Assembly (NCBI GenBank): GCA_003990765.1
Contig: RBNJ01000136.1
Span: forward strand, 1 to 39,722
Reading direction: 5' to 3'
Source: Jimgerdemannia flammicorona
Taxonomy: Eukaryota
Length of the DNA: 39,722 nt
The notes below the pieces were generated by a model that saw only the letters and a list, made by a program, of their open reading frames with translations, was not told where the DNA came from and made no database searches. The position numbers and the translations under genes are program-made. Below, piece after piece: positions 1-25,402 of this stretch; position 1 is the stretch's first letter; each line of letters starts with the position of its first letter.

Positions 1-92
1 AAACAAACAAAAAAAAAAAAAAAAAAAAAAAAAACCACAAAAAAAAAAAAAAAAAAGAAAAAAAAAACAAAAAAAAAAAAAAGAAAAAAAAA

Positions 93-150
<58 letters not shown>
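1..150. repeat. Poly(A)-rich tract with scattered C/G; probably low-quality contig-end sequence
   Basis: Nearly pure A with no periodic unit; joins directly onto the middle of a variant LTR at 151. Confidence 0.6.
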
Positions 151-152
<2 letters not shown>

Positions 153-3108: not shown

Positions 3109-3115
3109 ATTTATA
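3109..3115 (-). promoter_or_regulatory. Main LTR TATA box (TATAAAT)
   Basis: ctagTATAAATacc motif recurs in LTR copies (e.g. 15267-15273, 928-934); AATAAA ~120 nt downstream. Confidence 0.7.
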
Positions 3116-3289
3116 CTAGTGAGGAGCTATCTGGACTATGCTAGATATGGATATAGCACTAAGTGCCTTGCTGAGTTGGAATGTAGTCACATAGTATAAG
3201 TGTGATCTGACATATCAAGAGATCATCTGACTGCTGAGTCAGTTCACAGTCACATCATACAAGGCTAATCTAACTAGGCTATTTATGTT

Positions 3290-4387
3290 TTAGACACTGT
3301 CTGAGTAGTCTTCGATGATATCACTATCGATTGCATCATCTCTGATGAAGTAGTTGTCTAGGAAGAGTGATTCACGGATTACTTCTCCTTGTTCACTGAG
3401 GTAGTAATACATTGGAACTTTGTCTCCATCCCATAGGATAGCATTGTCTGTCTCGTAGGCTGGATAAGGTGTTAGTAGATAAAGGATGGGTATATTGTCT
3501 TCACTTTCATTGGATTCGCTGTCAGTATACCTTCTATAGGTTACAGCATTATGAGTTGCAGGATTGTAGTAAGCTGGTGGCTGTGATTTATGTTGCTCGT
3601 ACTCAGATGGTGGAGTGGTTGGTTCAATGTCAAGGGTTGTCTGGAGGTACAGGTTGTGTTCTCTGGTCTCTTCGTTGTAGTTGAAGTAATCGGGGGTGAA
3701 TGTGGGTTGGTATTCATACTAGTGGTCATTGTCCCAATAAGTCTTATATGCAGTTATAAACTGTTGTAAGTTCATCGGCAAGGTTGGCGGAGTGATCAGG
3801 GTTGGCAGAGATCCTTGGCTAGAGGTCATGTCGGCATCAGAAGGATCATTATCTTCTGCTTTATCTTCATCGAAGTGGATTATATCATAGATATCCTTCA
3901 TGGCATATCCAACTTAGGGCATTTGCAGGATATGATCATTAGAGTGTGGGAAGGTTCTGTCTGTGGTTTCAACATACTCGAGGTACTTGTGGTTGAGTTC
4001 TTGTATCATGTCATCAATTTGGCCATAGGACAGAGTAGCAACCATTTCGCTGGTAGTAACTCGGAGGCGAGGAATAATGGTACTGTACTTGTAGAAGAGT
4101 TCTCGATATTTGCGGGCGATGAGCTTCTGGTGTTGAGACATCTGGGTAATGTCTGTGTTGTGGTAGTGTTCAACCATGTCTTCCAGGAGGTGGCCGATCT
4201 GGTAGTAGCTTGAGATTTGTCTGATTCAGTGGGCCTCACTAAGCATGTTCAGAGCATTCCATCAGGCTTCCACGAAGTAGAGGAGTACTAGGCTATGGAT
4301 ATTCATGAGGGGCAGAGGGGGTGTGGCTCGGTTGACAATAGTATTCCAAATATCAGCACAGATATGGTTGTAGATCTCGGTGATCAT
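3290..4387 (-). pseudogene. LTR-encoded orphan ORF (365 codons), copy in A 3' LTR with premature stops
   Basis: 1098 nt ATG..TAA; track fragments 3719-3901, 3914-4177 and 4262-4468 share this frame and match the 338-aa ORF at 15463. Confidence 0.85.
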
Positions 4388-4645
4388 GTTTGTGTGTTTG
4401 GAAGTTTGTGGTTGTTGTTTGTTTTGGTTCTCTGTTTCAACGTGTCTCGGTGCTCGGTATATATACATTTGATCCTAATTGGTAAGATTCTGCTTGTATA
4501 AATCTTGTGTTCTGTGACTTCATATTAACTCAGCTTTGTGCACTGTGACTTCGGTTTGACTCAGCTTCATGATCAAGCAGGTGATTTCCAGATTTGTTCA
4601 GAGGTTGTGTGTGATTTCAGTGGCTTGGAGGTTGTGCGCTTACAA

Positions 4646-4658
4646 CTCTCCCCTTCTT
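4646..4658 (-). other. Polypurine tract AAGAAGGGGAGAG
   Basis: Purine run 1 nt before the TG of the 3' LTR; also at ~16818-16830 and ~32099-32111. Confidence 0.9.
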
Positions 4659-4869
4659 AGCTTTCGATGTCCTTGTTGGGGCCTTCTAATTTTATTCAGT
4701 GGTACAGGGAAAATAGGTTGCTTTTCAGTTTTGCTATTTTTCCAGAGAGTCAGTATTCTTGTTTTGTTTTGCTGAGTTCTTGGTTTGGTTTGTGATTATA
4801 ATGTTCAGGAGGATAATATATAGTATGTATGAATAGGTGTGGAGTATTTGGTTCTAGTTGTTCAAGGAA

Positions 4870-5025
4870 TCATATTCCTGAACTAGGTCAGTAGCATTCT
4901 GGAGATTGGTCTTGAGTTCCCAGGTTGCATCGTGGATTGGGTAACCTTTCCATTTGACAAGGTACTCAGGGTGGCTCTTGTTGCCATGTTTGTTGAGGAT
5001 TTGTTCAACTTCGTACTCTTCTTGG
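4870..5025 (-). pseudogene. Integrase C-terminal chromodomain (element A)
   Basis: EEYEVEQILNKH...EYLVKWKGYPIHDATWE after the GPY/F-region IHPVFNV motif. Confidence 0.92.
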
Positions 5026-8000
5026 TCATTAATAATGACAGGTGCAGGTGGTTTGGTGGTCCAGTTTGGAAATAGCTCATCATCATTCTCATTGTATTGC
5101 TTGAGACATTGAACATTAAAGACTGGGTGAATCTTAATGGTGTCTGGTAGCATCAATTTGTAGGAGGTTGGAGAGACTTGTGTGATGACTTCAAATGGTC
5201 CAATGAACTTGCTGTTTAGCTTTGTAGATGGTCTGTACTTGAGATTGTCAACTTGGTATCCTCTGATGTCCAGTAGAACTTTTTCTCCAATATCAAAAGT
5301 TTCTTCTCAGCAATGTTGGTTAACATACTGTGACTGTTGTTCTTGAGCTCATAATAAATTCTCAATGGCAATCTGGCTTAGATTGCGCATTCAAAGTAAG
5401 AATTCTTCAACAGCTTTGACTGTGGAGGGTTCTTCAGTGGTTTGGATAAGTGTCAAAGGGGTGTTTGGGTTTTGTCTAGTATTGGTGAAGAATGGGGTCA
5501 TTCCGAGAGAGGCTTGCTTGCTATTGTTATAGGCAAACTTGACTGCAGTGAGGTGTTCATGCCAATCATCTTGTCTGTAGGAAACATAGTTCCTTAGTAT
5601 TTATTCCAGAGTTTGGTTCATTCTTTCAGTTTGACCATCAGTTTCAGGGTGAAAGGCTGTGGATAGTACAAGTTTTGTTCCAAGATATGCATGGAGGGCT
5701 TTCCAAAAATGGCTGGTGAATTTCGGGTCTTGGTTGCTAATAATGATCTTAGGAAGACCATGATAGTGGAAGATGTTGTCAAATAAGAGTGTAGCTATGT
5801 CTGGTGCTGTTACAGTAGTAGTAGTAGGCATAAAGTGGGCTTGTTTGCTGAGATAGTCCACAAAGACAATAATTGCATCTTTCCCATTCTTGGTTCAGAG
5901 TAGTTGTACAATGAAGTTCATAGAGATTTGTTCCCAATTTGCAGATAGTACTGGGATAGGGTGGAGTAAGCCAGGTTTTGCTAGTGTTGAGGACTTGTTC
6001 TGTTGGCAGGTATCACAGAAAGTAATGTAGGTTTTGAGCTGATCTGCCATGTGGGGCCAATAGAAGTTTCGGGAGATAACTTCATAGCATTTATCAAATC
6101 CTAAATATCCAGCTATAGGAGTATCATGACATTCGAATAGGATAGTCCTTCAGAGGTCTCAGTTGTTTGGGACATACAGTCTGTCTTTGTAGTAGATAGC
6201 ATTGTCCTTCAGTTGGTATTGATGATACTATGTATATTTGTCAGTATCGTCACTATTTAGGATTTCTCACAGTGCTTGAGCTTCCTTATCATCAGCATAT
6301 GCTGTGATAATTTGTTCCATAATAGTGTTGGTAACCAAGGTGAGAGTTTGGATAACTTCTTCAATGGGTGGTCTGGAGATTGCATTGGTAATAATATTTT
6401 CCTTGCCAGGGCGGTACTGGATTTTGTAGTCAAAGTTGGTGAGGACTTTCATCCATCTGGCTTGCTTTTGAGAAAGGGTAGCCTGTGTCTTGATGTTAAC
6501 TAATGACTTGTGGTCAGTTAATACAGTGAAGTGTGCTCCTTCTAGATATGGTCACCATTTGATCAGAGTGTCTATGATAGCTAGTATTTCCTTCTTGTGG
6601 GTTGTATAGTTAATTTCAGTATCATTGAACTTGCAGGAGTGATAGGCCACAGGGTGTCCTTCTTGCATGAGTACTGCTCCAAGGGTTAGGTCAGAGGCAT
6701 CAGTGGTAACTTCATATGGCAGTGCAGGGTTTGCTGCTTGAAGTACTGAAGTGGTTATCAGGGTATCTTTTAGTGCTTGAAAGGCAGTATCTTGCTCGGG
6801 TCCCCAAGTTACAAGATTGTTGAAGTCTTTCTCTTGTTTCATGGTCCAGGGTTGTTCTTGTTTCTTGCTGTGCTTGGTCATTTGGGTGAGAGTGGTAGCA
6901 ATTTTATCAAAGTTGGCAACAAATCGCCTGTAATAGTTTGCTAATCCCAGGAATGACTGGAGGTCTTTCAGCTTCTTGGGTCTGGGCCAATCTTTGATTG
7001 CCGAGATTTTGCTGGGGTCTACTTTGATTCTATTTAGAGTGACAATGTATCCAAGGAATTGAATTTCTTTCAGGAGAAATTCACACTTGCTGAGTTTTGC
7101 AAAGAGTCGGTTTTCTCGGAGTTTCAGTAGTACTAGTTCAAGATATTCAAGATGTTCCTCTAGGGTTTTGCTGAAGACTAGGATGTTGTCAATATAGACA
7201 ACAACGAATTTGTCTAGATATGGATGCAGAATGGTATTCATCAGTATCTGGAAGATTGCTGGAGCATTAGTTAAGCCAAAGGGCATAACCAGGAACTCGA
7301 AGTGTCTATAGCGAGTTTGGAAAGCTGTCTTGTGGATGTCTTCTTCTTTTATAGCAATTTGCCAATAGCCATTTTACAGGTCAAAAGAGCTCATAAATTA
7401 TGGGTTGGTAAGTCTATCGAATATTTCATCAATCCTCGGTAGTGGACAACAGTTCTTGATGGTCTATTCATTGAGATCGCAGTAGTCAATGCACATTCAC
7501 AGGTCTCCTCCTTTCTTGACAACAAAGAGGACTGGTGCACCATAGGGAGATACACTGGATCTGATGAATCCTTATTCTAGGAGTTTGTCGATTTCCTTCT
7601 TGAGTGTATCAATTTCTCTTGGAGACATGTGGTAGATTAACTTGAGGGCTGGTTTGGCATCTGGGATAGTCTTGATAGCATAGTCTACTGCTCGTTTGGG
7701 AGGTAGGCCTTTCAGGAGCTTCTTTGGGAATATATTCCAGAATTTCTGGAGTAGTGGTCTGACACAGCTATCAACTTTGGAAAAATCTTCTTCAGAGTTC
7801 TCAGGTTCTCCTTTGGATAGACGGATGGAGATGGTAAAGAGAGGGCATTTTTTGGCCAATTTCTTGAGTTGTAGCTTGTTGATGTGGGTGATCTTTGGTC
7901 CAGGGTCACTAGAGTTGAGTGGGTCCTTTTTGCCTTATAGTTTGAAGTTGTGGTGTCCTTTCTTGATGGTCAGAGAATGGTTTACCCAATCTATCATGGG

Positions 8001-8514
8001 GTTCTCTTATTTTAACCATGAAGTCCCAAGGATGATTTCATTGTCAGAAAGTGGTATGATCTGGAGGGTAACATATACTCAGTAGTCACCAATTCGGAAG
8101 GGTAGATTGCAGACTTCTTTGCTAATAATGTGTGAGGTTCTATCAGCTGTAGCAACTGCTTAAGTTTGCTGTACTGGAGAGGTGAAGACCTTGAGTCTGT
8201 TGGCTGTTTCTTCATTGATGAAGTTTTCTGAGGCACCACTGTCTATCATAATCTTGACAGGTGCTCCATTGACAAAAGCCTTAAGGGTGAGCAGTTTGTC
8301 TGATCCAATAGTGGTGATTTTGGTTGTTTGAGCTTTCCTTCTGTTGGTTCTTCTTTGAGCCAGTTCATTGATACAAAAGAAGCAATCATCAATCATTTGG
8401 GAAGAGTACATTCCAATGCCATGAGGGCATTGGCCACTTGGTACATATCCATCTTCGATCTTCTTGTAGAATTGTTCTTCTTTGTTTGTGGTAGGTTGGG
8501 TTGGGGCCTTGTTT

Positions 8515-8920
8515 GATGAGCCAAATCTTTTGGATCCTCGGATGGTGGGCAGTAGTTCAGGGACTTCCTTGACTGTCAGAGTTGACTTGATTTTTTCGAA
8601 TAAGATCTGGGCAATGCAGAAACCAATAGGGATCTTGAAGGGTGTCCAACTGTGGTTTCGGATGAGGACAATAATTTCACCTGTGTAATCCTCATCAATG
8701 ACTCCTCCTTCTACTGAGAGTCCTTTCAATGCTAGGCTGCTGTGACAGCATATTCTTCTAACATGTCCTTTAGAGATTTGGATACTGATTCCTGTATAGA
8801 CTTATTTGACTTCTTGGTTGGAAACTGTAGCTTCTTTGGCTACATACAGGTCATATCCAGCTGCTTTTTAACTTCCTTTGATTGGGGCCTTAGCAGTTTG
8901 TCTTAACTTGACAAAGTCTA
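8515..8920 (-). pseudogene. dut: Trimeric dUTPase domain (element A)
   Basis: AAGYDL, degenerate motif II, GGVIDEDYTGEI, IAQI and RGSKxFGSS in canonical order. Confidence 0.92.
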
Positions 8921-9986
8921 GTGTTCTGGTGGTCAGGTTGTTGAGGTGGTGCAGAGTGGTAACAGTTGCTCATATTGCTGTTCGGGGTTTTCAGTTAGGG
9001 CAGGCACTGGCCATGTGTCCTGTCTTTCAGCAATAGAAGCATGCTCTGCTTCTTCAAAGTTTGTTCCTTTTGCCTTCAGTAAGTTTCTTGAAGATACTTG
9101 GCTGAGTGGGTTCATAATTTCTGGGTGTCCAAGAGGTGGATGTGGAGAGAGCTTGAGATGCTTCATGCTTGGGTTCTTCTTTCTTAGTCCAAGTCTTTTT
9201 CTTATTATTAAATTGCCTTCAAGGCAGAATTGGTCCAGCTGTTAGGATTCGCTTGACCATAGTCTTGATTCTTGCCAGGCACCATTGTTGGTGATCACAA
9301 CCAACTGGGTGGCCTTATTCTTGGATTTTTCTAGTAAGCTATTCAGATAGTGTATCAAATAAATGGTCTGCTCTTGTACCATTTCATGCTTCATCATTGG
9401 TAATATATCCTAGGCCAACAGTGTTCAGGAGTGACTTGAGTTTTATACAGAAGATTTTGAATTCTTCTTTGCCATGTATATCGAATTTGAGGTTGTGCAG
9501 TTTTACTCAAGATTCAGCAATCATGGTTTCACTGTGGTATTGAGCAATCATGAGTTGTTTGAGTGCAGGGGCTGCAGGGTGGGCTCCATATCCTGGGGCA
9601 TTGTTTGTTACATTCTGAGCAACTACTGCAGGTCGGGTATCCCATGTGAGGGGTTTTTCAGAAAGAGTTCACCACCATTCTTTGGCAGATCCTCAGAAGA
9701 ATGTAACAACTCAGCAGACATAGGCTGTAGTGGTAGCAAACAGTTGTTCCAGAGTGTGGTCTTGATTGTTTGTCAGAACGTGGTCAGCAACTCACTCATT
9801 GGTCCATTGATTGGCTTCGAAGTTGGTATCCACTACACTAATGAAGCTTTGGACTTCTTGTACAGTACCATTGAAGATAGGTAGGCTCAGATTTTTGGTA
9901 GGTCGGGTCTGTTCAGCTAAGGCAGTAATGATTGCTGCCATTATGGCTACCTGGACTGTGAGGTTAAGAATCTGTTGGTTCACTAT

Positions 9987-10841
9987 GTTGTTTACTGGAG
10001 GTAGTTGGACTGCTGGTAGTGGTATTACTAGTACTACTTGAGGTACTGGTGCAGAGTGTGATGGGGTTCTTTGAGTCTGTGTAAGTTGCTGGAGTAGTAG
10101 TTGTGGGTCTGAAGTAAGGGCTTGATAGATAACTATTTATTGCTGTGTAGGTGTATTCTGTCCTGATGGAGGTGCTTCTCCTTCAGTGGTGTATCCGGGA
10201 TCAAATTCACTGAGATACTCCTCCTCTTCTTCAGTTTGGTCCCCGTGTAATTGGGTTTGCTCAGCATCAAAGTAAACAGAATCAGTTGTATATCTGATTT
10301 CAGATAGACTTAATTCAAGGTCAAGTTCAGGTTCAGTATTGGTTTCAGATTCAGGTAGGGCTGTAGCAGGGCCTGCTTCAGGTTCGGGATCAGGTAGTTG
10401 ATGAAGGGTTTCTCTTACTTCTTCTTTAAGAATATGGCAGGTCTTGCTGTTCTGGAATCAGTAGTATAATGTAGTCTTGGTCCTGGTATGGTGAAAATTG
10501 GTAGAGTTGAGCCACTTGGCTACAGAGGCTTGGGATTTGTGAGGAACTAAGGCTAGAAAGACTGCTGCTAGTTGTCCTAGGTTGCTCAGATTTGTGGAGC
10601 TGACAAAACTCTTATTGAGAAGAGTAAAGAAGGCTTCAATAAGGCCTTCGTCATCTTGACTTGCTGGGTGTAGTGCAAGGAGTTCAGTGAATAGAGTTTC
10701 GCCTATTTGCTGGTTTAATCTGAGTACTTCTTTCTTTGAATGAAGTTTGTCCTACTTGTTGCAGGTGTGGAGGTCAAATTGTCCTTATATGTTAGGTTCA
10801 ATTCTCTCCAGATTGTCAGATGGTTCAGGATAAATTCCAGT
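9987..10841 (-). pseudogene. AUG-less 285-codon frame continuous with the gag N-terminus (element A)
   Basis: Manual translation gives ...KKEVLRLNQQIGETLFTELLALHPAS...EEEEEYLSEFDPGY... with three transition-type stops; 855 nt in all five copies. Confidence 0.7.
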
Positions 10842-10933
10842 TCAGAGGTTGGGCTTTATACCAACTTGTAGGAATTCGCAGAGGGGTTTGTAGCAGGGTG
10901 AGGAAGTGTCTTGAAGCAGAATTGGGTTGTAAA

Positions 10934-10945
10934 CTGCTACTACCA
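10934..10945 (-). other. Primer-binding site (consensus TGGTAGCAG), initiator tRNA-Met-like
   Basis: 3 nt inside the 5' LTR end; also 14366-14377, 23326-23337, ~29970-29981, ~35476-35487; tRNA identity inferred. Confidence 0.8.
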
Positions 10946-10948
10946 AGT

Positions 10949-12998
10949 TGTAAGAGGGTTGCTTTTTAGAGTAACCATTACGTAGTTCTGGAAAGGTTTT
11001 CTGGATATTCTAGATATTCTGGAAGACCGTTTTCTTATGTTCAAGATCAATTTTGTATGGTGTACATCCTCTATGCTTATTGATTTCAAGTTCAGGTTGA
11101 CGTCTCAACCAAAGTTCCTTTTTTTGGACTAGTTCTGGATGTTCAGGATTTTCCATATTTCAGGAAGTTCAGAAAACTAAGACCAGCTTAGTTGAATCAG
11201 TGTATTGCTGCAGACAATATCCAATTAGGAAATTTCATGACAGGGTTAGAAGTGGGACCTAACAGGGAGCAGATTTACTTAAGAGTGGTTTGTGGGTTAT
11301 TGAATAGGTTTATTTGCTATTCATGATATTGCTATACTAGGAGTATTTGTGTGAAGAGATATTGTGGGGAAGTATTCAGAAATGTTCTTGTGTGTTCGAG
11401 TCTGAGATTCTGAGGTCTGGGGGAGGGGGTATTTATACTAGTGAGGGGCTATCTGGACTATGCTAGATATGGATGTAGCACTAAGTGCCTTGCTGAGTTG
11501 GAATGCAGTCATATAGTACAAGTGTGATCTGACATGTCAAGAGATTATCTGACTGCTGAGTCAGTTCACAGTCACATCGTACAAGGCTAATCTAACTAGG
11601 CTATTTATGTTTTAGGCACTGTCTGGGTAGTCTTCAATGACATCACTATCGATTGCATCATCTCTGATGAAGTAGTCGTCTAGGAAGAGTGGTTCGCAGA
11701 TTACTTCTCCTTGTTCACTGAGATAGTAATATATTGGAACTTTGTCTCCATCTCACAGGATAGTATTGTCTGTCTCATAGGCTGGATAAGGTGTTGGTAG
11801 ATGAAGGATGGGAGTATTGTCTTCACTTTCATTGGATTCACTGTCTGCATACCTTCTATAGGTTATGGCACTATGAGTTGCAGGATTGTAGTAAGCTGGC
11901 AGCTGTAGTTCATGTCGCTCGTACTCAGGTGGTGGAGTGGTTGGTTCGATGTTGAGGGTTGTCTGGAGGTACAGGTTGTGTTCTCCTGTCTCTTCATTGT
12001 AGTTGAAGTAATCAGGGGTAAATGTGGGTTGGTATTCGTACCAGTGATCATTGTCCCAATAAGTCTCGTATGAAGTTATGAACTGTTGTAAGTTCATCGG
12101 CAAGGTTGGCAGAGTGATCAGGGTTGGCAGAGATCCTTGGCTAGAGGTCATATCAGCATCAGAGAGATCATTGTCTTCTGCTTCATCTTCATTGAAGTGG
12201 ATTATATCGTAGATGTCCTTCATGGTGTATCCAACTTGGGGCATTTGCAGGATATGATCATTGGGGTGTGGGAAGGTTCTGTCTGTGGTTTCGACATACT
12301 TGAGGTACTTGTGGTTGAGTTCTTATATCATGTCATCAATTTGGCCATAGGACAGAGTAGCAACCATTTTGCTGGTAGTAACTCGGAGGCAAGGAATAAT
12401 GGTACTGTACTTGTAGAAGAGTTCTCGATATTTGCGGGCGATGAGCTTCTGGTGTTAAGACATCTGGGTAATGTCTGTGTCATGGTAGTGTTCAACCATG
12501 TCTTTCAGGAGGTGGCCAATCTAGTAGTAGCTTGAGATTTGTCCGATTTGGTGGGCCTCGCTAAGCATGTTCAGAGCATTCCATTGGACTTCCACAAAGT
12601 AGAGGGGTGCTAGGCTATGGATATTCATGAGGGGAAGAGGGGGTGTGGCTTGGTTGACAATGGCATTCCAAATGTCAGCATGGATACAGTTGTAGATCTT
12701 GGTAGTCATGTTTGTATGTTTGGAAGTTTGTAGTTGTTGTTTGTTTCGGTTCTCTGTTTTGACATATCTCGGTGCTTGGTATATATACATTTGATCCTGA
12801 TTGGTAAGATTCTGCTTGTGTAAATCTTGTGTTCTGTGACTTCGTATTGACTCAGCTTTGTGCACTATGACTTCGGTTTGACTCAGCTTCATGATCAAGC
12901 AGGTGATTTCCAGATTTGTTCAGAGGTTGTGTGTAATTTCAGTGGCTTGTTCAGGGGGTGATATATAATTTTGGTGGCTTGGAGGTTGTGCACTTATA
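10949..12998 (-). repeat. 5' LTR of element A
   Basis: Direct repeat of 2626-4644 plus an extra 32-bp unit; PBS adjacent. Confidence 0.95.
11612..12709 (-). pseudogene. LTR-encoded ORF copy in A 5' LTR
   Basis: 1098 nt; track ORFs 11753-12244 and 12521-12898 in this frame. Confidence 0.85.
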
Positions 12999-14784
12999 AG
13001 GGGCTACAGGATGGACTCCATATTCTGGGGCATTATTTGCTACATTCTGAGCAACTACTGTAGGTCAGGTGTCCCAAGTGAGGGGTTTTTCAGGAAGGGT
13101 TCACTACTATTCTTCGGCAGGTCCTTGGAAGAATGTAATAACTTGGCAGAAATAGGCTGTGGTAGTAGCAAAGAGTTGTTCCAGAGTGTGGTCTTGATTG
13201 TTTGTCAGAAGGTGGTCAGCAACTTGCTCATTGGTCTATTGATTGGCTTCAAAGTTGGTATCAACTACACTAATGAAGCTTTGGACTTCTTGTACAGTAC
13301 CATTAAAGATAGGTAGGCTCAGATTTTTGGTAGGTTGGATCTGTTCAGCTAGGGCAATAATGGTTGCTGTCATTATAGCTACTTGAACTGTGAGGTCTAG
13401 AATCTGTTGGTTTGCCATATTGTTTACTGGAGATGGTTGGACTACTGATAGTGGTGTTACTGGTACTACTTGAGGTACTAGTGCAGAGTATGATGGAGTT
13501 CTTTGGATCTGTGTAAGTTGCTGGAGTAGTAGTTGTGGGTCTAGAGTGAGGGCTCAATAGATAGCTGTTTGTTGCTGTATAGGTGTGTTCTGTCCTGATG
13601 GAGATGCTTCTCCTTCTGTGGTGTATCCAGGATCGAATTCACTGAGATACTCCTCCTTCTCTTCAGTTTGGTCCCTGTGTAATTGGGTTTGCTCGATGTC
13701 AAAGTAGATAGAATTAGTTGTATATCTGATTTAAGATAGACTTAATTCAAAATCAAGTTCTGGTTCAGTGTTGGTTCCAGATTCAGATAGAGCTGTAGCA
13801 GGGCCTGCTTCTGGTTCTGGGTCAGGTAGTTGATAAAGGGTTTCTCTTGCTTCTTCTTTAAGAATATGATGGGCCTTGCTGTTCTGGAATTGGTAGTATA
13901 ATGTGGTCTTGGTCTTGGTATGGTGAAAGTCAGTAGAGTTGAGCCACTTGACTATAGAGGCTTGGGCTTCATGAGGGACTAAGGCTAGAAAGACTACTGC
14001 TAATTGTCCTAGGTTGCTCAGATTTGTAGTACTGACAAAACTCTTGTTGAGAAGAGTAAAGAAGATTTCTATAAGACCTTCTTTGTCTTGACTTGCTGGG
14101 TATAGAGCAAGGAGTTTGGTGAATAGGGTTTTGCCTATTTGCTGATTTAACTGGAGTATTTCTTTCTTTGAATGAAGTTTGTCCTACTTGTTGCAGGTGT
14201 GAAGGTCAAATTGTCCTTGTACATCAGGTTCAATTCTCTCCAGATTGTCAGATGGTTCAGGATAAATTCTAATTCAGAGGTTGGGCTCTATACCAACTTA
14301 TAGGAATTCACAGAGAGGTTTGTAGCTGAGTGAGAAAGTATCTTGAAGTAGAATTGGATTGTAAACCGCTGCTACCAAGTTGTAAAAGAGTTACTTTTTA
14401 GAGTAACCATTATGTAGTTCTGGAAGGGTTTTCTGGAAGTTTCTGGATATTCTGAAAGACTGTTTTCTTATGGTCAAGATCAATTTTGTATGGTGTATAT
14501 CCTCTATGCTTATTGATTTCAAGATTGGGTTGACATCTCAACCAAAGTCCTTTTTCAGACTAGTTCTGGATGTTCGGGATTTTCTATATTTCAGGAAGTT
14601 CAAGAAACTAAGACCAGCTTAGTTGAATTGGCATATCACTACAGACAATACCCAATTAGGAAATTTCATGATAAGGGTTAGGAGTGGGACCTAACAGAGA
14701 GTGGATTTACTTAAGAGTAGATTGTGGGTTATTAAATAGGTTTATTTGTTATTCATGATATTACTATACTAAGAGTAGTTGTAT
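12999..14784 (-). mobile_element. Element B remnant: gag N-terminus, leader, PBS and first 404 bp of a 5' LTR (14381-14784)
   Basis: MANQQILDL... at 13418; truncated at both ends by LTR termini of A and C. Confidence 0.9.
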
Positions 14785-15462
14785 TGTAAGAGGGTTGCTT
14801 TTTAGGGTAACCGTTACATAGTTCTGGAAGGATTTTCTGGATATTCTGGATGTTCTGGAAGACCGGTTTCTTATGGTCAAGATCAATTTCATATGGAGTA
14901 TGTCCTCTATGCTTATTGATTTCAAGATCGGGTTGATGTCTCAACTGAAGTCCTTTTCTGGACTAGTTCTGGATGTTCAGGATTTTCCGTATTTCAGGAA
15001 GTTCAAGAAACTAAGACCAGCTTAGTTGAATTGGTGTATCACTGCAGACAATACCCAATTAGGAAATTTCGTGATGGGGTTAGGAGTAGGACCTAACAGG
15101 GAGCGGATTTACTTAAGAGTAGTTTGTGGGTTATGGAATAGGTTTATTTGCTATTCATGATATTGCTATACTAGGAGTATTTGTGTGAAGGGGTATTGTG
15201 GAGAAGTGCTCAGGAGTTGTGTTCAGATTGTTTAAGTCTGAGATTCTGAGGTCTGGGAGAGGGGGTATTTATACTAGTGAGGGGCTATCTGAACTATACT
15301 AGATATAGATGTAGCACTAAGTGCCTTGCTGAGTCGGAATACAGTCATGTAGTACAAGTGTGATCTGACATGTCAAGAGATCGTCTGACTGCTGAGTCAG
15401 TTCACAGTCATGTCATACAAGGCTAATCTATCTATACTATGACTGCTAGACTATTTATAGGT

Positions 15463-16560
15463 TTAGGCACTATCTGGGTAGTCTTTGATGACATCACCAT
15501 CGATTGCATCATCTCTGATGAAGTAGTCGTCTAGGAATAATGATTCGTGAATTACTTCTCTTTGTTCGCTGAGGTAATAATACATTGGAACTTCATCTCC
15601 ATCCCACAGGATAGCATCATCTGTTTCGTATGCTGGATAAGGTGTTGGTGGGCGAAGAATGGGTGTATTATCTTTGCTTTCATCGGATTTGCTGTCTGCG
15701 TACCTTCTATAGGTTACAGCACTATGAGTTATGGGGTTGTAGTAAGCTAGCAGCTGTGGTTCATGTCGCTCATACTCGGGTGGTGGAGTGGTTGGTTCAA
15801 TCTCAAGGGTTGTCTGAAGGTATAGGTTGTATTCTCCGGTCTCTTCATTGTAATTGAAGTAATCGGGGGTGAATGCGGGTTGGTATTCGTGCCAGTGGTC
15901 ATTGTCCCAATAAGTCTTATATGTAGTTATGAACTGTTGTAAGTTCATCAGCAAGGTTGGCGGAGTGATCAGGGTTGGCAGAGATCCTTGGCTTGAGATC
16001 ATGTTGGCATCAGAGGGATCATTGTCTTCTGCTTCATCTTCGTTGAAGTGGATTATATCATAGACATCCTTCATGGCATATCCAACTTGAGGCATTTGTA
16101 GGATATGGTTATCAGGGTGCAGGAAGGTTCTGTCTGTGGTCTGGACATATTCGAGGTACTTGTGGTTGATTTCTTGTATCATGTCATTGATTTGGCCGTA
16201 GGACAGGGTAGTAACCATTTCGCTGGTAGTGACTCGGAGGCGGGGAATAAAGGTGTTATACTCATAGAAGAGTTCTCGATGTTTGTGGGTGATGAGCTTC
16301 TGGTGTTGAGACATCTGGGTCATATCTGTATCGTGGTGGTGTTCGACCATGTCTTCTAAGAGGCGGCCGATCTGGTAGTAGCTTGAGATTTGTCCTATTC
16401 GGTGGGCCTCACTAAGCATGTTCAGGGTGTTCCATCGGGCTTCCATGAAGTAGAGGGGGGCCAGGCTATGGATATTCATGAGGGGCAGAGGGGGTGTAGC
16501 TTAGTTGACAATGGCATTCCAAATGTCAGCACGGATGCGGTTGTAGATCTCAGTGGTCAT
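15463..16560 (-). CDS. LTR (U3)-encoded orphan protein, 365 aa consensus; near-intact copy with one stop at 16501-16503
   Basis: 338-aa open frame 15463-16479 plus 27 in-frame codons to a conserved ATG in ACACAAAC-ATG context; wholly inside the LTR. Confidence 0.85.
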
Positions 16561-16629
16561 GTTTGTGTGTTTGGAAGTTGTAGTTGTTGTTTGTTTTGAT
16601 TCTCTGATTCGATACGTCTCGGTGCTTGG

Positions 16630-16735
16630 TATATATACATTTGGTCCTGATTGGTAAGATTCCGTTTGTGTAATTCTTGTATTCTGTGACTTTGTATTGA
16701 CTCAGCTTTGTGCACTGTGACTTTGGTTTGACTCA
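16630..16735 (-). promoter_or_regulatory. Candidate internal promoter of the LTR ORF: two TGAGTCA sites and TATATA ~70 nt upstream of the ATG
   Basis: TGACTCA at 16698-16704 and 16729-16735, TATATATA at 16630-16637; recurring in type A LTRs. Confidence 0.5.
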
Positions 16736-17241
16736 GCTTCGTGATCAAGCAGGTGATTTCCAGATTTGTTCAGAGGTTGCGTGTGATTTCAGTAGCTTGG
16801 AGGTTGTGCACTTACAACTCTCCCCTTCTTAGCTTTTGACATCCTCATCAGGGCCTTCTAATTTGTTCTAGTGTTGTTATACCATTTGGGAGGTCAAAAG
16901 TCTGGTAAGGTCCATTTTCTCAGAAAGTGGCATGCTCGTAGTACAGTTGCCTAACATATTGGATTCACATGTTAAAGGGTCATATGTTCAATACCGTGTG
17001 CCGGAAGTGATTCTGACGTCATTCACTGCTGGAGAATTTCCTCTAAGAAATCTTCTTAAATGTCTACACCTTGTTTCTCACCAGTAGTACAGGGAGAATA
17101 GGCTTGCTTTCAGTTTTGCTATTTTTCCAGAGGGTCAGTATTCTTGTCTTGTTTTGCTGAGTTCGTGATTTGGTTCATGATAGTTATAATATTCAGGAGG
17201 GTAATATATAGTATGTATGGATAGGTGCAGAGTATTTGGTT

Positions 17242-20200
17242 CTAGTTGTTTAAGGAATCATATTCCTGAACTAGATCAGTAGCATTCCAGAGATTGGTCT
17301 TGGGTTCCCAGGTTGCATCATGGATTGAGTAACCTTTCCATTTGACAAGGTACTCCAGATGGTTCTTGTTTCCGTGTTTGTTGAGGATTTGTTCAACTTT
17401 GTACTCTTCTTAGTCATTAATGATGACAGGTGCAGGTAGTTTGGTGGTCTGGTTTGGAAATAGCTCATCATCATTGTCATTATATCGCTTGAGACATTGA
17501 ACATTAAAGACTGGGTGAATCTTAATGGTGTCTGGTAGCGCCAGTTTGTAGGAGGTTGGAGAGACTTGTGCAATGACTTCAAATGGTCCAATGAACTTGC
17601 TGTTCAGCTTTGTAGATGGTCTATGCTTGAGGTTGTCAACTCGGTATCCTCTGATGTCTAGTAGGACTTTTTCTCCAATATCAAAAGTTTCTTCTCGGTG
17701 GTGTTGGTTAACATACTGTGACTGTTGTTCTTGAGCTCGTGATAAATTCTCAATTGTAATCTGGCTTAGATTGCGTATTCAGAGTAGGAATTCTTTAATA
17801 GCTTCGACTGTGGAGGGTTCATTGGTAGTTCGGATAAGTGTCAAAGGGGTGTTTGGGTTTTGTCCAGTATTAGTGAAGAATGGGGTTATTCCAAGAGAGG
17901 CTTGCTTGCTGTTATTATAGGCAAACTCGACTGTGGTGAGAAGTTTATGCCAATCATCTTGTCTGTAGGAGACATAGTTCCTTAGCATTTGTTCCAGAGT
18001 TCGGTTCATTCTTTCAGTTTGGCCATCAGTTTCAGGGTGAAAGGCTGTGGATAGTACAAGTTTCATTCCAAGGTATGCATGGAGGGCTTTCCAAAAATAG
18101 CTGGTGAACTTTGGATCTTGGTCACTAATAATGATCTTAGGAAGACCATGATGGCGGAAGATATTGTCAAACAAGAGTGTAGCTATGTCTGGTGCTATTG
18201 CAGTAGTGGTAGTAGGCACAAAGTGGGCTTGTTTACTGAGGTAGTCCACAAAGACAACAATTGCATCTTTCCTGTTCTTAGTTCAAGATAGTTATACAAT
18301 GAAGTCCATAGAGATTTGTTCCCAATTTGCAGATAGTACTGGGATAGGGTGAAGTAAGCTGGGTTTTGCTAGTGTTGAGGACTTGTTTCGTTGGCAGGCA
18401 TCACAGGAAGTGATATAGGTTTTGAGCTGATCTGCCATGTGGGGCCAATAGAAGTTTTGGGAGATAACTTTATAATATTTATCAAATCCTAAATGTCCAG
18501 CTGTAGGGGCATCATGACATTTGAATAGGATAGTCCTTCGGAGGTCTCGGTTGTTTGGAACATACAATTTGTCCTTATAGTAGATAGCATTGTCCTTGAG
18601 TTGGTATTGATTGTGCTGGGTATGCTTGTCAGCATCATCATTGTTCAGGATTTCTTGGAGTACTTGAGCTTCTTTATCATCAACACATGCTGCGATGATT
18701 TGTTCCATGATAGTGTTGGTAACCAAGGTCAGAGTTTGGATAACCTCTTCGATTGGTGGTCTGAAGATTGCATCGGCAACAATATTTTCCTTGCCAGAGT
18801 GGTATTGGATTTCGTAGTCAAAGTTGGTAAGGACTTTCATCCATCTAGCTTACTTTCGAGAAAGGGTAGCCTGTGTCTTGATGTTGACTAATGACTTATG
18901 GTCAGTTAGTACAGTGAAGTGTGCTCCTTCTAGATATGGTCGCCATTTGATCAGAGTGTCTATGATGGCTAGCATTTCCTTCTCGTGAGTTGCGTAGTTG
19001 ATTTCAGTATCATTGAACTTACAGGAGTGATAGGCCACAGGGTGTCCTTCTTGCATGAACACTGCTCCAAGAGCTAGGTCAGAGGCATCAGTGGTGACTT
19101 CATATGGTAGGGCAGGGTTTGCCACTTGAAGTACTGGTGTGGTTATCAGAGTATCTTTCAGTGCTTAGAAGGCGGTATCTTATTCGGGTCCCCAATTTAC
19201 AAGATTGTTGAAGTCTTTCTCTTGTTTCATGGTCCAAGGTTGTTCTTGTTTCTTGCTGTACTTGGTCATTTGGGTGAGAGCAGTAGCAATTTTAGTGAAG
19301 TTGGCAACAAATTGCCTGTAATAGTTTGCTAATCCCAGGAATGACTGGAGGTCTTTCAGCTTCTTGGGTGTGGGCCAATCTTTGATTGTTGAGATTTTGC
19401 TGGGGTCCACTTTGATTCTATTTGGAGTGACAATGTGTCCAAGGAATTGAATTTCTTTCAGAAGAAATTTGCACTTGCTGAGTTTTGTGAAGAGTTGGTT
19501 TTCTCGGAGTTTTAGTAACACTAGTTCAAGGTGTTCAAGATGTTCTTCCAGGGTTTTGCTGAAGACTAGAATGTCATCAATGTAGACAACAATGAATTTG
19601 TCTAGGTATGGATGCAGAATGGTATTCATCAGTATCTGGAAGATTGCTGGAGCATTAGTTAAGCCAAAGGGCATAACCAGAAACTCGAAGTATCTATAGT
19701 GAGTTCGGAAAGCTGTCTTGTAGATGTCTTCTTCTTTCATGGCAATTTGCCAGTAACTATTTCACAGATCGAAAGAGCTCATGAATTGTGGGTTGGTAAG
19801 TCTATCGAATATTTCATCAATCTTCGGTAGTGGACAATAGTTCTTGATGGTCTGTTCATTGAGATCGCAGTAGTCAATGCACATTCGCAGGTCTCCTCCT
19901 TTTTTGACAACAAAGAGGACTGGTGCACCATAGAGTGATACACTGGGTCTGATGAATTCTTGTTCTAGGAGTTTATCGATTTCCTTCTTGAGTATATCAA
20001 TTTCTCTTGGAGATATATGGTAGATTGACTTGAAGGCTGGTTTGGCATCTGGGATAGTCTTGATTGCATGGTCTACTGCTCATTTGGGAGGTAGGCCTTT
20101 TGGGAGCTTCTTTGGAAATATGTCTTGGAATTTCTGGAGTAGTGGTCTGACATGGCTGTCAACTTTGGAAAAATCTTCTTCAGAGTTCTCGGGTTCTCCT

Positions 20201-22378
20201 TTGGATGGTCGGATGGAGATGGCGAAGAGAGGGCATTTCTTGGCCAATTTCTTGAGTTGTAGCTTGTTGATGTGGGTGATCTTTGGTCCAGGGTCACTAG
20301 AGTTGAGTGAGTCCTTTTTGCCTTGTAGTTTGAAGTTGTGGTGTCCTTTCTTGATGGTCAGAGAATGGTTTACCCAATCAATCATGGGGTTCTCTTGTTT
20401 TAACCATGGAGTCCCAAGGATGATTTCATTGTCAGGAAGTGGTACAATTTGGAGGGTAACATGTACTCGGTAGTTGCCAATTCGGAAGGGTAGATTGCGG
20501 ACTTCTTTGCTAATAACATGTGAGGTTCCATCAGCTGTAGTAACTGCTTGAGTTTGCTGTACTGGGGAGGTGAAGACCTTGAGTCTGTTGGCTGTCTCTT
20601 CATTAATGAAGTTGCCTGAGGCACCACTGTCTATCATAATCTTGACAGGTGCTCCATTGACAAAAGCTTTAAGGGTGAGCAGTTTGTCTGATCCAATGGT
20701 GGTGATTTCAGTTGTACATAGGAGCCTTTCTTCTGTTGGTTCTTCTTTGAGCCAGTTCGTTGACACAAGAGAAATAATCATCAATCATTCGAGAAGAGTA
20801 TATTTCAATGCCATGAGGGCATCGGCCACTTGGTATATATCCATCTTTGATCTTCTTGTAGAATTGTTCTTCTTTGCTCATGGTAGGTTGGGCTAGGGTC
20901 TTGTTTGATGAACCAAATCCTTTGGATTCTCGGATGGTGGGTAGTAGTTCAGGGACTTCCTTGACTGTCAGGGTTGACTCGATTTTTTCAAATAGGATCT
21001 GGGTGATGCAGAAGTCAGTAGGGATCTTGAAGGGTGTCCAACTGTGGTTTTGGATGAGGACAATAATTTCGCCTGTGTAATCCTCATCAATGACTCCTCC
21101 TTCTACTAAGAGTCCTTTCAATGCTAGGCTGCTGTAGCAGCATATTCTTCCAACATGTCCTTCAGGGATTTGGATACTGATTCCTGTATAGACTTGTTTG
21201 ACTTCTCAGTTGGAAACTGTAGTTTCTTCAGCTGCATACAGGTCATATCTGGCTGCTTTTAGATTTCCTTTGGTTGGGGCCTTAGCAGTTTGTCTTAACT
21301 TGACAAAGTCTAGTATTCTGGTGGTCAGGTTGTTGAGGTAGTGAAGAGTGGTAACAGTTGCTCGTGTTGCTGTTTGGAGTTTCTGATTAGGGCAGGCATT
21401 GGCCATGTGTCCTGTCTTTCGGCAATAGAAATATGCTCCACTTCTTCGAAGTTCATTCCTTTCACCTTCAGTGAGTTTCTTAAAGGTACTGGGCTGGGTG
21501 GGTTCAGGATTTCTGGGTATCCAAGAGGTGGATATGGAGGGAGCTCGAGATGCTTCATGCTTGGGTTCTTCTTTCTTGGTCCAAGTCTTTTCCTTGTTGT
21601 TAAATTGTCTTCGGGGCAGAATTGGTCCAGCTGTTGGGATTTGCTTGACCATGGACTTTATTCTTGTCAGGCACCATTGTTGGTGATCACAACCAACTGG
21701 ACAGTCTTGTTCTCGGATTTTTCTAGTAAGCCATTCAGACAGGGCATTGAATAAGTGGTCTACTCTTATACCATTTCGTGCTTCATCATTGGCAACATAT
21801 CCTAGGCCAACAGTGTTCAGAAGTGACTCGAGTTTTGTACAGAAGGTTTTGAATTCTTCTTTGCCATGTACATCAAATTTGAGGTTGTGGAGTTTTACTC
21901 GAGATTCGGCAATCATGGTTTTGCTGCGATATTGAGCAATCATGAGTTGTTTGAGTCCAGGGGCTGCAGGATGGGCTCCATATCCTGGGGCATTGTTTGC
22001 TGCATTCTGGGCAACTACTACAGGTCGGGTATCCTATGTGAGGGGTTTTTCAGGAAGGGTTCACCACCATTCTTCGGCAGGTCCTCGGAAGAATGTAACA
22101 ACTTGGCAGATATATGCTGTAGTGGTAGCAAAGAGTTGTTCTAGGGTGTGGTCTTGATTGTTTGTCGGAACATGGTCAGCAACTCACTCATTGGTCCATT
22201 GATTGACTTCAAAGTTGGTGTCAACTACACTAATGAAGCTTTGGACTTCTTGTACAGTACCATTGAAGGTAGGTAGGCTCAGATTTTTGGTAGGTCGGGT
22301 CTGTTCAGCTAAGGCAGTAATGGTTGCTGCCATTATAGCTACTTGGGCTGTGAGGTCTAGAATCTGTTGGTTTGCCAT
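17242..22378 (-). pseudogene. Gag-dUTPase-PR-RT-RH-IN-chromodomain polyprotein of element C (stops, 4-nt frameshift near 20715)
   Basis: YIDD intact; integrase HHCC (CHDAPTAGH...CDAC) and core; knuckle 21392-21433; dUTPase ~20905-21310; IDSGAS ~20625; 5137 nt = A + 4. Confidence 0.95.
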
Positions 22379-23233
22379 GTTGTTTACTGGAGGTGGCTGG
22401 ACTACTAGTAGTGGTGTTACTGATACTACTTGAGATACTGGTGCAGAGTGTGATGGGGTTCTTTGGGTCTGTATAAGCTGCTGGAGTAGTAGTTGTGGAT
22501 CTGGAGTGAGGGCTTGATAGATAACTGTTTGTTGTTGTATAGGTGTATTCTGTCCTGATGGGAGTGCATCTCCTTCAGTGGTGTATCCAGGATTGAATTT
22601 GGTGAGATACTCCTCCTCTTCTTCAGTTTGGTCCTCGTGTAATTGGGTTTGCTTGGCATCAAAGTAGATAGAATCAGTTGTATATCTGATTTCAGATGGA
22701 CTTAATTCAAAGTCAAGTTCAGGTTCAATATTGGTTTCAGATTCAGATAGGGCTGTAGCAGGGTCTGCTTCAGGTTCAGAATCAGATAGTTGATGAAGGG
22801 TTTCTCTTGCTTCTTCTTTAAGGATATGGTGAGCCTTGCTGTTCTAGAATCGGTAATATAAGGCGGTCTTGGTCCTGGTATGGTGGAAGTCAGTAGAGTT
22901 GAGCCACTTGACTACAGAGGCTTGGGCTTCATGAGGAACTAAGGCTAGAAAGACTGCTGCTGGTTGTCCTAGGTCGCTTGGATTTGTGGAGCTAACAAAA
23001 CTCTTGTTGAGAAGAGTAAAGAAGACTTCAATAAGACCTTCTTCATCTTGACTTGCTGGGTGTAGTGTAAGGAGTTTGGTGAATAGGGTTTCGCCTATTT
23101 GCTGGTTTAACCGGAGTACTTCTTTCTTTGAATGAAGTTTATCCCACTTGTTGCAGGTGTGGAGGTCAAATTGTCCTTGTACGTCAGATTCAATTCTCTT
23201 CAGATTGTCAGATAGTTCAGGATAAATTCCAGT
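22379..23233 (-). pseudogene. AUG-less gag-upstream frame, element C copy
   Basis: 855 nt, in frame with ATG 22378; the stops seen in copy A are sense codons here. Confidence 0.7.
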
Positions 23234-23340
23234 TCAGAGGTTGGGCTTTATACCAACTTGTAGGAATTCTCAGAAGAGTTTGTAGCAGGGTGAGGAAGCA
23301 TCTTGAAGTGGAATTGGATTGTAAACCACTGCTACCAAGT

Positions 23341-25402
23341 TGTAAGAGGGTTACTTTTTAGGATAACTGTTACGTAGTTCTGGAAAGATTTTCTGGATAT
23401 TCTGGATATTCTGGAAGACTGTTTTCTTATGGTCAAGATCAATTTCATATGGAGTACATCCTCTATACTTATTGATTTTAAGATTGGGTTGATGTCTCAA
23501 CCAAAGTCCTTTTCTGGACTAGTTCTGGATGTTCAGGATTTTCCGTATTTCAGAAAGTTCAAAAAACTAAGACCAGCTTAGTTGAATTGGCGTATCGCTG
23601 CAGACAATACCCAATTAGGAAATTTTGTGATGGGGTTAGGAGTAGGACCTAACAAGGAGCAGATTTACTTAAGAGTGGTTTGTGGGTTATGGAATAGGTT
23701 TATTTGCTATTTATGATATTGCTATACTAGGAGTAGTTGTGTGAAGAGGTATTGTGGGGAAGTATTCAGAAATATTCTTGTATGTTCAAGTCTGTTCAAG
23801 TCTGAGATTCTGAGGTCTGGGAGAGGGGGTATTTATACTAGTGAGGGGCTATCTGGACTATGCTAGATATGGATATAGCACTAAGTGCCTTGCTGAGTCG
23901 GAATGCAGTCACATAGTTCTGACATATCAAGAGATCGTCTGACTGCTAAGTCAGTTCACAGTCATGTTGTACAAGGCTAATCTAACTATACTATGACTGC
24001 TAGGCTATTTATGGGTTTAGGTGCTGTCTGGATAGTCCTTGATGATATCACCATCGATTGTATCATCTCTAATGAAGTAGTCATCTAGAAATAATGGTTC
24101 GTGGATTACTTCTCCTTGTTCACTGAGATAATAGTACATTGGAACTTCATCTTCATCCCACAGGATAGCATCATCCATCTCATATGCTGGATAAGGTGTT
24201 AGTAGACAAAGGAGTGGTGCATTGTCTTCACTTTTATCGGATTCACTATCTGCATACCTTCTATAGGTTACGGTACTGTGAGTTGCGGGGTTATAGTATG
24301 CTGGCAGCTGTGGTTCATGTCATTCGTACTCTGGTGGTAGAGTGGTTGGTTCGATCTCGAGGGTTGTCTGGAGGTACAGGTTGTATTCTCCGGTCTCTTC
24401 ATTATAGTTGAAGTAATCGGGGGTGAATGTGGGTTGGTATTCGTGCCAGTGGTTATTGTTCCAATAAGTCTCATATACAGTTATGAACTGTTGTAAGTTC
24501 ATCGGTAAGGTTGGCGGAGTGATCAGGGTTGGCAGAGATCCTTGGCTAGAGGTCATGTCAGTATCAGAGAGATCATTGTCTTCTGCTTCGTCTTCATCAA
24601 AGTAGATTATATCATAGATGTCCTTCATAGCATATCCAACTTGGGGCATTTGCAGGATATGATCATTGGGGTATGGGAAGGCTCTGTCTGTAGTTTCAAC
24701 ATACTTGAGATACTTATGGTTGAGTTCTTGTATCATGTCGTCGATTTGACTATAGGACAGGGTAGCAACCATTTCACTGATAGTGACTCGGAGGTAGGGA
24801 ATAAAGGTACTGTACTTATAGAAGAGTTCTCAATATTTGTGGGCGATGAGCTTCTGGTGTTGAGACATCTGGGTAATGTCTGTATCATGGTGGTGTTCGA
24901 TTATGTCTTCCAGGAGGCGGCTGATCTGGTAGTAGCTTGAGATTTGTCTGATTCAGTGGGCCTCGCTAAGCATGTTCAGAGTGTTCCATCAGGCTTCCAC
25001 AAAGTAGAGGGGTGCCAAGCTATGGATATTCATGAGGGGCAGAGGGGGTGTGGCTCGGTTGACAATGGCATTCCAAATGTCAGCACAGATATAGTTGTAG
25101 ATCTCAGTGGTCATGTTTGTCTGTTTGGAAGTTGTGGTTGTTGTTTGTTTTGGTTCTCTGATTTGATGTGTCTCGGTGCTCAGTATATATGCATTTAGTC
25201 CTGATTGGTAAGATTCTGTTTGTGTAAATCTTGTATTCTGTGACTTTGTATTGACTCAGCTTTGTGCACTGTGACTTCAGTTTGACTCAGCTTCATGATC
25301 ACACAGGTGATTTCCAGATTTGTTTAGAGGTCGCATGTGATTTCAGTGGCTTGTTCAGAGAGTGACGTGTAATTTCGGTAGCTTGGAGGTTGTGTGCTTA
25401 CA
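23341..25402 (-). repeat. 5' LTR of element C (LTR ORF pseudogene at 24017-25114)
   Basis: Termini, adjacent PBS, 1098-nt ORF remnant. Confidence 0.95.

Follow-up and report, generated by a model that had tools for sequence, protein, structure and literature searches.

We analysed a 39,722-nt stretch of DNA from Jimgerdemannia flammicorona (GenBank assembly GCA_003990765.1, contig RBNJ01000136.1, positions 1 to 39,722; hereafter the window), and in particular a 365-codon reading frame that lies inside the long terminal repeats (LTRs) of a retrotransposon family. Self-comparison shows that the window (39.7 kb) consists almost entirely of this one repeat family, whose nested and tandem arrays lie for the most part on the minus strand. 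It holds two complete elements, element 1 at 2626-12967 and element 2 at 14785-25371, besides truncated ones, and one LTR (30016-32047) is common to two internal regions. The minus strand, on which the 1,098-nt frame is read, is the sense strand of the element. We consider that the frame is a real coding accessory gene of a Ty3/Gypsy chromovirus bearing a dUTPase, decayed in every copy in the window, and we give this reading a probability of about 0.65. The frame and its copies are as follows.

15463-16560, minus strand: LTR-borne frame, least decayed copy, 365 codons plus TAA, with one internal TAA at codon 20
3290-4387, minus strand: full copy in the 3' LTR of element 1, four internal stops
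11612-12709, minus strand: full copy in the 5' LTR of element 1, four internal stops
24017-25114, minus strand: full copy in the 5' LTR of element 2, four internal stops
30693-31790, minus strand: full copy in the LTR shared by two internal regions, eight internal stops
1814-2626, minus strand: partial copy in a truncated LTR, codons ~86-365, three indels near the break and seven stops
36995-37764, minus strand: partial copy, codons 1-257, ending where a variant LTR without the open reading frame (ORF) begins
38960-39421, plus strand: partial copy, codons 1-154, no indels and four stops

Element 2, which carries the least decayed copy in its 3' LTR, has the following parts.

14785-16816, minus strand: 3' LTR of element 2, 2,032 bp, with the start TGTAAG at 16811-16816 and the end CTTACA at 14785-14790, from self-BLAST and LTR alignment
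16818-16830, minus strand: polypurine tract (PPT) AAGAAGGGGAGAG, one base upstream of the LTR start
23326-23337, minus strand: primer-binding site (PBS) TGGTAGCAGTGG, 3 nt past the end of the 5' LTR (23341)
17272-23233, minus strand: internal region of element 2, with gag, dUTPase, protease (PR), reverse transcriptase (RT), RNase H, integrase and chromodomain, from Pfam and reading frames

The same PPT, AAGAAGGGGAGAG, also stands at the 3' LTR at 2626-4645 and at the shared LTR at 30016-32047. When the internal region is read through its stops as X, Pfam finds a dUTPase (E = 7e-29), RVT_1 (E = 4e-33) and a Tf2-type SH3 domain, and the order of domains in pol is gag-asp_proteas (40-130), RVT_1 (294-452), RT_RNaseH (557-655), Integrase_H2C2 (745-803) and rve (823-917). 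A chromodomain (PF00385, Chromo; E = 1.8e-12) occupies residues 1128-1166 of 1171 at the integrase C-terminus. The dUTPase (~20906-21286, minus strand) is encoded in frame with gag, after it and before the protease, and a CCHC motif can be seen by eye in the translated gag of the element 2 internal region. The best matches of pol among named proteins are 42-46% identical (Closterium, Solanum), and the top match (48%) is a dUTPase-bearing metagenomic protein. The LTRs have TG...CA ends, a PBS follows the 5' LTR and a PPT precedes the 3' LTR, and the family is a Ty3/Gypsy chromovirus (Metaviridae) with a dUTPase.

An earlier note on this DNA, made from its letters alone, had called the carrier a chromovirus and had fixed an LTR of ~2.0 kb by its PPT, its PBS and its TGTAAG/CTTACA ends. 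The Pfam matches to PR, RT, RNase H, integrase and chromodomain, plus the dUTPase, bear out the first claim, and the limits of the 2,032-bp LTR, read directly in the sequence, are exact. The five copies of 1,098 nt that it listed are found at all five coordinate pairs, in one register and each with 365 codons plus a stop, and the frame, said there to fill more than half of the LTR, takes up 54% of it, with the PPT and the LTR start (16816) upstream of the ATG (16560). The frame is found in both LTRs of two elements. It lies wholly within the LTR and is therefore written into both LTRs by reverse transcription, so that the proposed duplication at each transposition also holds. The further suggestion, that solo LTRs retain the frame, is not borne out here: the window contains no clean solo LTR, and its LTRs stand in recombined LTR-internal-LTR arrays without target-site duplications.

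The copies have decayed in a consistent way. In the five full copies, every internal stop (21/21) is a transition from a CGA, CAA, CAG or TGG codon that survives in other copies, and such stops are typical of CpG-driven decay. The terminal stop of the frame is present in 7/7 copies that cover its site. Because there are 15-19 and 30-38 stops in the two remaining sense frames, the ancestral open frame of 365 codons is not due to chance. Between copies, differences affect 55-63% of CpG-bearing sites, 5-12% of CHG sites and 11-15% of CHH sites, the observed/expected ratio of CpG is 0.23, and transitions outnumber transversions by ~10:1. This context points to a host with CpG-only methylation of repeats and not to the CHG pattern of land plants. 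Repeat-induced point mutation leaves no clear sign in the decay pattern of the whole window.

Because the copies are old and carry strong CpG decay, a naive ratio of nonsynonymous to synonymous substitution rates (dN/dS) is unsafe. At non-CpG sites, the divergence at codon positions 1, 2 and 3 is 0.065-0.089, 0.023-0.054 and 0.129-0.158 in the frame, and pol of the same elements has the same pattern (0.059, 0.029 and 0.105). The transition-weighted dN/dS at non-CpG sites is 0.26-0.43 in 9/9 LTR pairs other than B-C (p from 1e-4 to 6e-8), while it is 0.63 and not significant in B-C, the closest pair, and at least 1.18 in both off-frames. In relative synonymous codon usage, the correlation with pol is 0.77 for the frame, 0.78 for gag, and 0.19 and 0.55 for the off-frames of the frame.

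Since mutation is mostly C/G decay and the third positions are C-rich, a stricter, composition-aware null was used, in which only C/G-bearing sites are eligible and the expected synonymous share rises from 0.29 to ~0.47. The synonymous signal of the frame shrinks under this null, and an excess persists in the frame and is seen in neither off-frame. At sites where B equals C, 49/76 C/T changes are synonymous versus at most 0.49 expected (p = 0.004), and 15/35 G/A changes are synonymous versus 0.24 expected (p = 0.011). Where the only difference is between B and C, the synonymous counts are 8/20 for C/T (0.42 expected) and 0/7 for G/A (0.16-0.22 expected), neither of them significant, and these changes look neutral. 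As a positive control, pol shows 72/113 versus 0.47 and 27/66 versus 0.29 under the same null, the same effect size as in the frame, and the gag-dUTPase region shows a smaller synonymous excess than pol.

The distribution of indels gives the same picture as the earlier note, which had seen them in the LTR flanks and not in the frame. When the other four full LTRs are compared with the LTR of the copy at 15463-16560, 0/16 distinct indel events fall in the frame, which makes up 54% of the aligned LTR; the chance of this with indels spread evenly would be ~0.455^16 = 3e-6. Indels of every length are absent from the frame, multiples of three included.

Protein searches (word-indexed searches, exhaustive HMMER over 1.84 billion representatives of ~15 billion proteins, and a profile search) yielded two real homologues of the frame product, P0003 and P0004, both metagenomic and open. 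P0004 (128 aa) is 89-90% identical, has the identical start Met and no stops, and carries R or Q at six codons where copies in the window carry stops. P0003 (247 aa) covers the C-terminal two thirds with 64% identity, 82% positives, two 2-residue gaps and no stops. We simulated neutral drift of the P0003-matching segment to 64% identity: the segment stayed stop-free in 0.7-1% of 2,000 runs, and the share of positives had a mean of 0.74-0.75 and a maximum of at most 0.81, versus 0.82 observed for P0003. The replacements relative to P0003 are more conservative than neutral drift. The profile search of the protein library returned P0003 and P0004 and nothing further, and scans of metagenomes, viral genomes and prokaryote genomes gave no locus for a homologue in DNA. 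The ESM Atlas gave scores of 0.76 and 0.83, below the level of a lead, with Mucoromycota proteins and a closterovirus coat family as the nearest clusters. The earlier note did not recognise the family, and the Pfam, PDB profile and protein-library searches likewise match it to no known one. A repeat protein, P0005 (E = 8e-5), was considered as a relative and rejected, with an hhalign probability of 17% over 38 columns and Pfam matches that are repeat noise.

Two LTRs in the window lack the frame.

35490-36994, minus strand: variant LTR without the frame, in which ~50-70 nt at the LTR start and ~740 nt at the LTR end are kept, the final ~62 nt of the frame among them
19-1129, plus strand: second copy of the variant LTR without the frame

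In these variants, ~700 nt of non-coding DNA, in which each frame has 14-18 shared stops, stand in place of the cassette of promoter plus ORF, and one variant copy directly adjoins a normal PBS-gag region. Because the 3' stub of the frame is retained, the variant is most simply derived from the ORF-bearing form. Such a variant fits an accessory, trans-acting or optional gene, and it fits a passenger equally well.

The product of the frame has 365 residues, a pI of 4.5 and a grand average of hydropathy of -0.71, with no Cys in the copy examined; it is hydrophilic and, by these features, a soluble protein. The highest Kyte-Doolittle value in a 19-residue window is 0.78, indicating no membrane segment, and there is no signal-like start, so that the earlier description of the protein as not env-like, without signal peptide or transmembrane segment, agrees with our values. 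The acidic, Pro/Tyr-rich C-half described there is also seen: Tyr, Pro, Thr, Asp and Glu are enriched, and the pI of this half is 4.15. An acidic linker stands between the helical part and the C-half, and the C-terminus is an acidic-hydrophobic tail. A structure model (345 residues, without the first 20 codons) places four long helices in the first ~120 residues, and the N-half is probably helical; the helices that the earlier note expected there are thus predicted, but in a model of very low confidence (pLDDT 30). The product shows no similarity to the Gag of the element, the best BLASTP match to the gag-dUTPase translation having E = 1.0. In composition, the protein appears closer to a regulator with an activation-type tail than to a structural or envelope protein. 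A PPEY late-domain motif at residue 240 was rejected, as it is not conserved in copy B or in P0003.

Three motifs bear on how the frame might be expressed.

16630-16637, minus strand: TATATATA, candidate promoter for a separate mRNA of the frame, 77 nt before the ATG, in 6/6 copies covering it
15266-15273, minus strand: TATAAATA, candidate genomic promoter, ~190 nt downstream of the stop of the frame, in 7/7 aligned copies
15143-15148, minus strand: AATAAA polyadenylation signal, 118 nt beyond TATAAATA, in 7/7 aligned copies

The leader after TATATATA is A/C-rich, contains no ATG and has A at position -3. We provisionally place the frame in the U3 part of the LTR because the conserved TATAAATA and AATAAA lie downstream of it. 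Judged from these motifs, the frame most likely lies wholly in U3, with U3 extending from 16816 to ~15240, R of ~115 nt and U5 of ~340 nt, and the R/U5 border would be near 15125. A start of the genomic RNA at the upstream TATA, with an R of ~1.45 kb, is unlikely. A second TATAAATA stands directly after the stop codon (15452-15459, minus strand) in 5/7 copies, and the LTRs of element 1 read CATAAATA there. A candidate splice donor, GGTATAA, is found ~85 nt after the 5' LTR, near 23250-23258. Words near-identical to the window occur in 20 sequencing runs, including soil or root metagenomes, each with at most 0.25 of the sampled words, and no RNA run is listed among the runs that share words with the window. 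In two runs guessed to be RNA, the contig depth is far higher at 14784-15353 than over the frame or the internal region, and nothing is concluded from this; the joints in the four runs examined are replacements or low-likeness joins, not minus-strand introns.

The history of the array affects how the copies can be compared. Neither complete element (ends 2626/12967 and 14785/25371) has target-site duplications, and the two LTRs of element 2 (E and F) are 87.3% alike, no closer than LTRs of different elements. The sequence pattern indicates that the array is shaped by LTR-LTR recombination, and dating by the divergence of LTR pairs is therefore misleading here.

Several observations weigh against the frame being a real accessory gene. 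No copy in the window is intact, a decay on which the earlier note was silent, and the homologues are only two, each on a contig of ~1 kb. Protein databases contain open frames only, so that the lack of stops in P0003 and P0004 is biased, although the result on conservative replacements is unbiased. Pfam has no match for the frame product at E up to 10 or for P0003 and P0004 at E up to 1, and the PDB sequence profile gives noise only (E = 0.3), with no solved relative. AlphaFold2 with a 7-row alignment has a mean pLDDT of 30.4 and is unreliable; it is possible that most of the protein is disordered or that the frame has no folded product. The cassette is not in every LTR of the family, because a variant adjoins a normal internal region. 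With all variable sites pooled, the synonymous excess is modest (59/104 versus 0.48 for C/T, p = 0.039; 16/45 versus 0.24 for G/A, p = 0.050). There is no contrast between fixed between-element differences (13 synonymous:9) and differences within intra-element LTR pairs (85:83; Fisher p = 0.50), or between shared variants (60:63) and singletons (74:88; p = 0.63). These two crude contrasts failed apparently because E and F are no closer than other copies and there are no target-site duplications: the arrays appear to be recombinant, so that most "private" changes would predate insertion. E and F resemble a between-element pair, and a split into changes before and after insertion is valid only for B-C. 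In addition, the promoter, the U3 limit, the expression route and the function are all drawn from motifs and composition.

Could the openness and the conservation of the frame instead come from base composition and from cis-acting functions of U3, such as enhancers and spacing, with no protein made? The sense strand is A/C-rich and T-poor, which means fewer stops, and C/G decay with C-rich third positions raises the apparent synonymous fraction from 0.29 to ~0.47. However, the other two sense frames on the same strand hold 15-38 stops, the synonymous excess is still there under the composition-aware null and neither off-frame shows it, the frame has no indels of any length versus 16 in the non-coding LTR flanks, and the replacements in P0003 are conservative, and we regard a non-coding frame as improbable. 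A passenger relic is unlikely as well. Here the frame would be a piece of a host gene or of a mobile element, transduced once into U3 and open at its capture, which does not serve the retrotransposon. No homologue of known function and no fold have been found for it, the LTR variant without the cassette stands beside a normal internal region, every copy in the window is dead, and gene capture by LTR retrotransposons is documented, captured genes usually being present in one or few copies according to the accessible part of the source (PMC7264820). Yet the frame occurs in eight LTR pieces and has two diverged metagenomic relatives, neither of which bears a name or Pfam domain marking a host gene. 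The all-length search gave three matches, none of them longer than the frame except the rejected P0005, the frame is as close to pol in codon usage as gag is, and its synonymous excess equals that of pol. The conservative replacements in P0003, beyond what drift gives, and the freedom of the frame from indels also argue against a passenger.

A further possibility concerns the region between the PBS and gag. Upstream of the first gag Met (MANQQIL...), ~285 in-frame codons without ATG (22388-23233, minus strand) are found in 4/4 copies. This stretch was open ancestrally, because its few stops are copy-specific, and it contains out-of-frame ATGs; it suggests an N-terminally extended Gag made from a non-AUG start, or a spliced exon. 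The LTR frame might accordingly be the first coding exon of such a Gag, if a transcript from the upstream TATA in the 5' LTR were spliced from near the end of the frame to the start of the ATG-less gag frame and supplied its start codon. The presence of this stretch in all four copies, its copy-specific stops and its out-of-frame ATGs, which show that it is not simply an ATG-free untranslated region, favour an exon of this kind. We nevertheless hold it to be improbable: splice evidence is lacking, the RNA would lack R-U5-PBS and hence not be genomic RNA, the frame ends in its own stop in 7/7 copies covering it, and BLASTP shows no similarity between the frame product and the gag-dUTPase translation. 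A simpler account of the ATG-less frame is non-AUG initiation, by which murine leukaemia virus makes its extended Gag.

If the frame is an accessory gene of the chromovirus, its expression can be sketched from the motifs. A monocistronic mRNA would start at TATATATA, 77 nt upstream of the ATG, and end at the AATAAA of the LTR, so that each LTR would be a self-contained gene; alternatively, the frame might be reached by a spliced subgenomic RNA, like retroviral 3' genes. The role is the weakest step: the protein may be a trans-acting factor that aids the expression of the element, an activator or anti-silencing factor being favoured over a structural protein. The gene could have arisen when the site of the plus-strand primer shifted upstream and drew a former 3' ORF into U3. 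The full proposal, that each LTR is a self-contained gene with a TATA promoter, the 365-codon frame and a polyadenylation signal, for a new trans-acting activator or anti-silencing regulator of the foamy-virus or MMTV (mouse mammary tumour virus) kind that arose in a retrotransposon, is speculative, and we rate it as rather unlikely. If it is true, each insertion, and any solo LTR, would seed the genome with a further expressible copy, and LTRs of the ORF-less kind would be natural parasites or escape forms of the system.

The placement of a gene inside an LTR is otherwise known mainly from MMTV. Searches of open-access papers brought up none that describes a coding frame inside the LTR of a non-retroviral LTR retrotransposon, and those aimed at ORFs in LTRs gave almost exclusively papers on MMTV. 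The sag gene of that virus ("LTR ORF") is a long sense frame (~320-365 codons) inside the U3 of a long LTR, carried by every LTR; the present frame is also long, in sense orientation and inside a long LTR, and probably shares the location in U3. The two show no sequence similarity in any search, and the carriers are a betaretrovirus and a Ty3/Gypsy chromovirus, respectively. Sag is a type II membrane glycoprotein, whereas the product of the frame has no hydrophobic segment, and no kinship with Sag is seen in Pfam, PDB or the protein library. The lentiviral nef gene and the foamy-virus bel/bet genes are 3'-terminal accessory genes with a start in the internal region and an overlap with the 3' U3. 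Like the frame in its probable position, they are 3' accessory coding sequences that reach U3; they only overlap U3, however, and share no sequence similarity with the frame. The acidic-hydrophobic tail of the product resembles, by composition only, the acidic C-terminal activation region of the foamy-virus activator Tas.

Among LTR retrotransposons, sense additional ORFs (aORF-3S, including the env-like ORFs of Athila and Bagy2) lie downstream of pol in the internal region, as far as the accessible text of the source describes them (PMC7264820). The frame is like the aORF-3S described in that text in being sense, downstream of pol, found in the majority of family copies (five full and three partial copies versus two LTRs with the cassette replaced) and without a cellular homologue. 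It differs from them in lying downstream of the PPT, in the LTR and hence also in 5' LTRs rather than in the internal region, and in having no transmembrane segment. The frame thus resembles a positional variant of the additional ORFs of LTR retrotransposons, with a position like that of MMTV sag. In the part of the literature available to us, dUTPase-bearing fungal chromoviruses (Postia, Phanerochaete, Tuber) have their dUTPase at variable positions (PMC2864245). They are likewise chromodomain Gypsy elements with a dUTPase, which in the present family lies between gag and PR; that paper, in its accessible portions, has an "add. ORF" in a figure legend and describes none in an LTR, and no protein found is more than 48% identical to the present pol. 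The crapaud LTR subfamilies of Podospora share a 3' half, have a swapped part of U3 and form non-sister LTR pairs by recombination, according to the text available (PMC10787394). The ORF-bearing and ORF-less LTRs and the non-sister pair E/F are similar to this; in crapaud, however, the variable part of U3 is <200 bp, and the same text reports no ORF in the LTR.

A coding gene within the LTR changes what an LTR can be. Such a gene would be duplicated with each insertion, and its expression could be independent of the remainder of the element. Should the family have solo LTRs, these would preserve the gene and offer the host a ready supply of new genes. Little is understood of the additional genes of LTR retrotransposons, which the accessible text of the review cited above describes in the internal region (PMC7264820). 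An accessory gene in the LTR of a chromovirus would be the counterpart, in a retrotransposon, of the LTR genes that complex retroviruses carry, and it would bear on the origin of 3' accessory genes, for example through a PPT that moves to a site upstream of a 3' ORF. LTRs with and without the ORF, on internal regions that are similar, provide a natural comparison for the role of the protein.

The LTRs and the internal region show a few further features. Rfam and tRNA scans of the window gave no match. A unit of ~45 nt just inside the LTR start is doubled in the two 5' LTRs and the shared LTR (12950-12998, 25354-25403 and 32030-32078) and single in the two 3' LTRs and the interrupted LTR (4582-4645, 16754-16816 and 37953-38024). 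In the shared LTR, the TGTAAG-like start is also doubled, at ~32047-32080. The gag-dUTPase frame and the PR-pol frame overlap by ~77 nt at 20708-20784 (minus strand), offset by one base.

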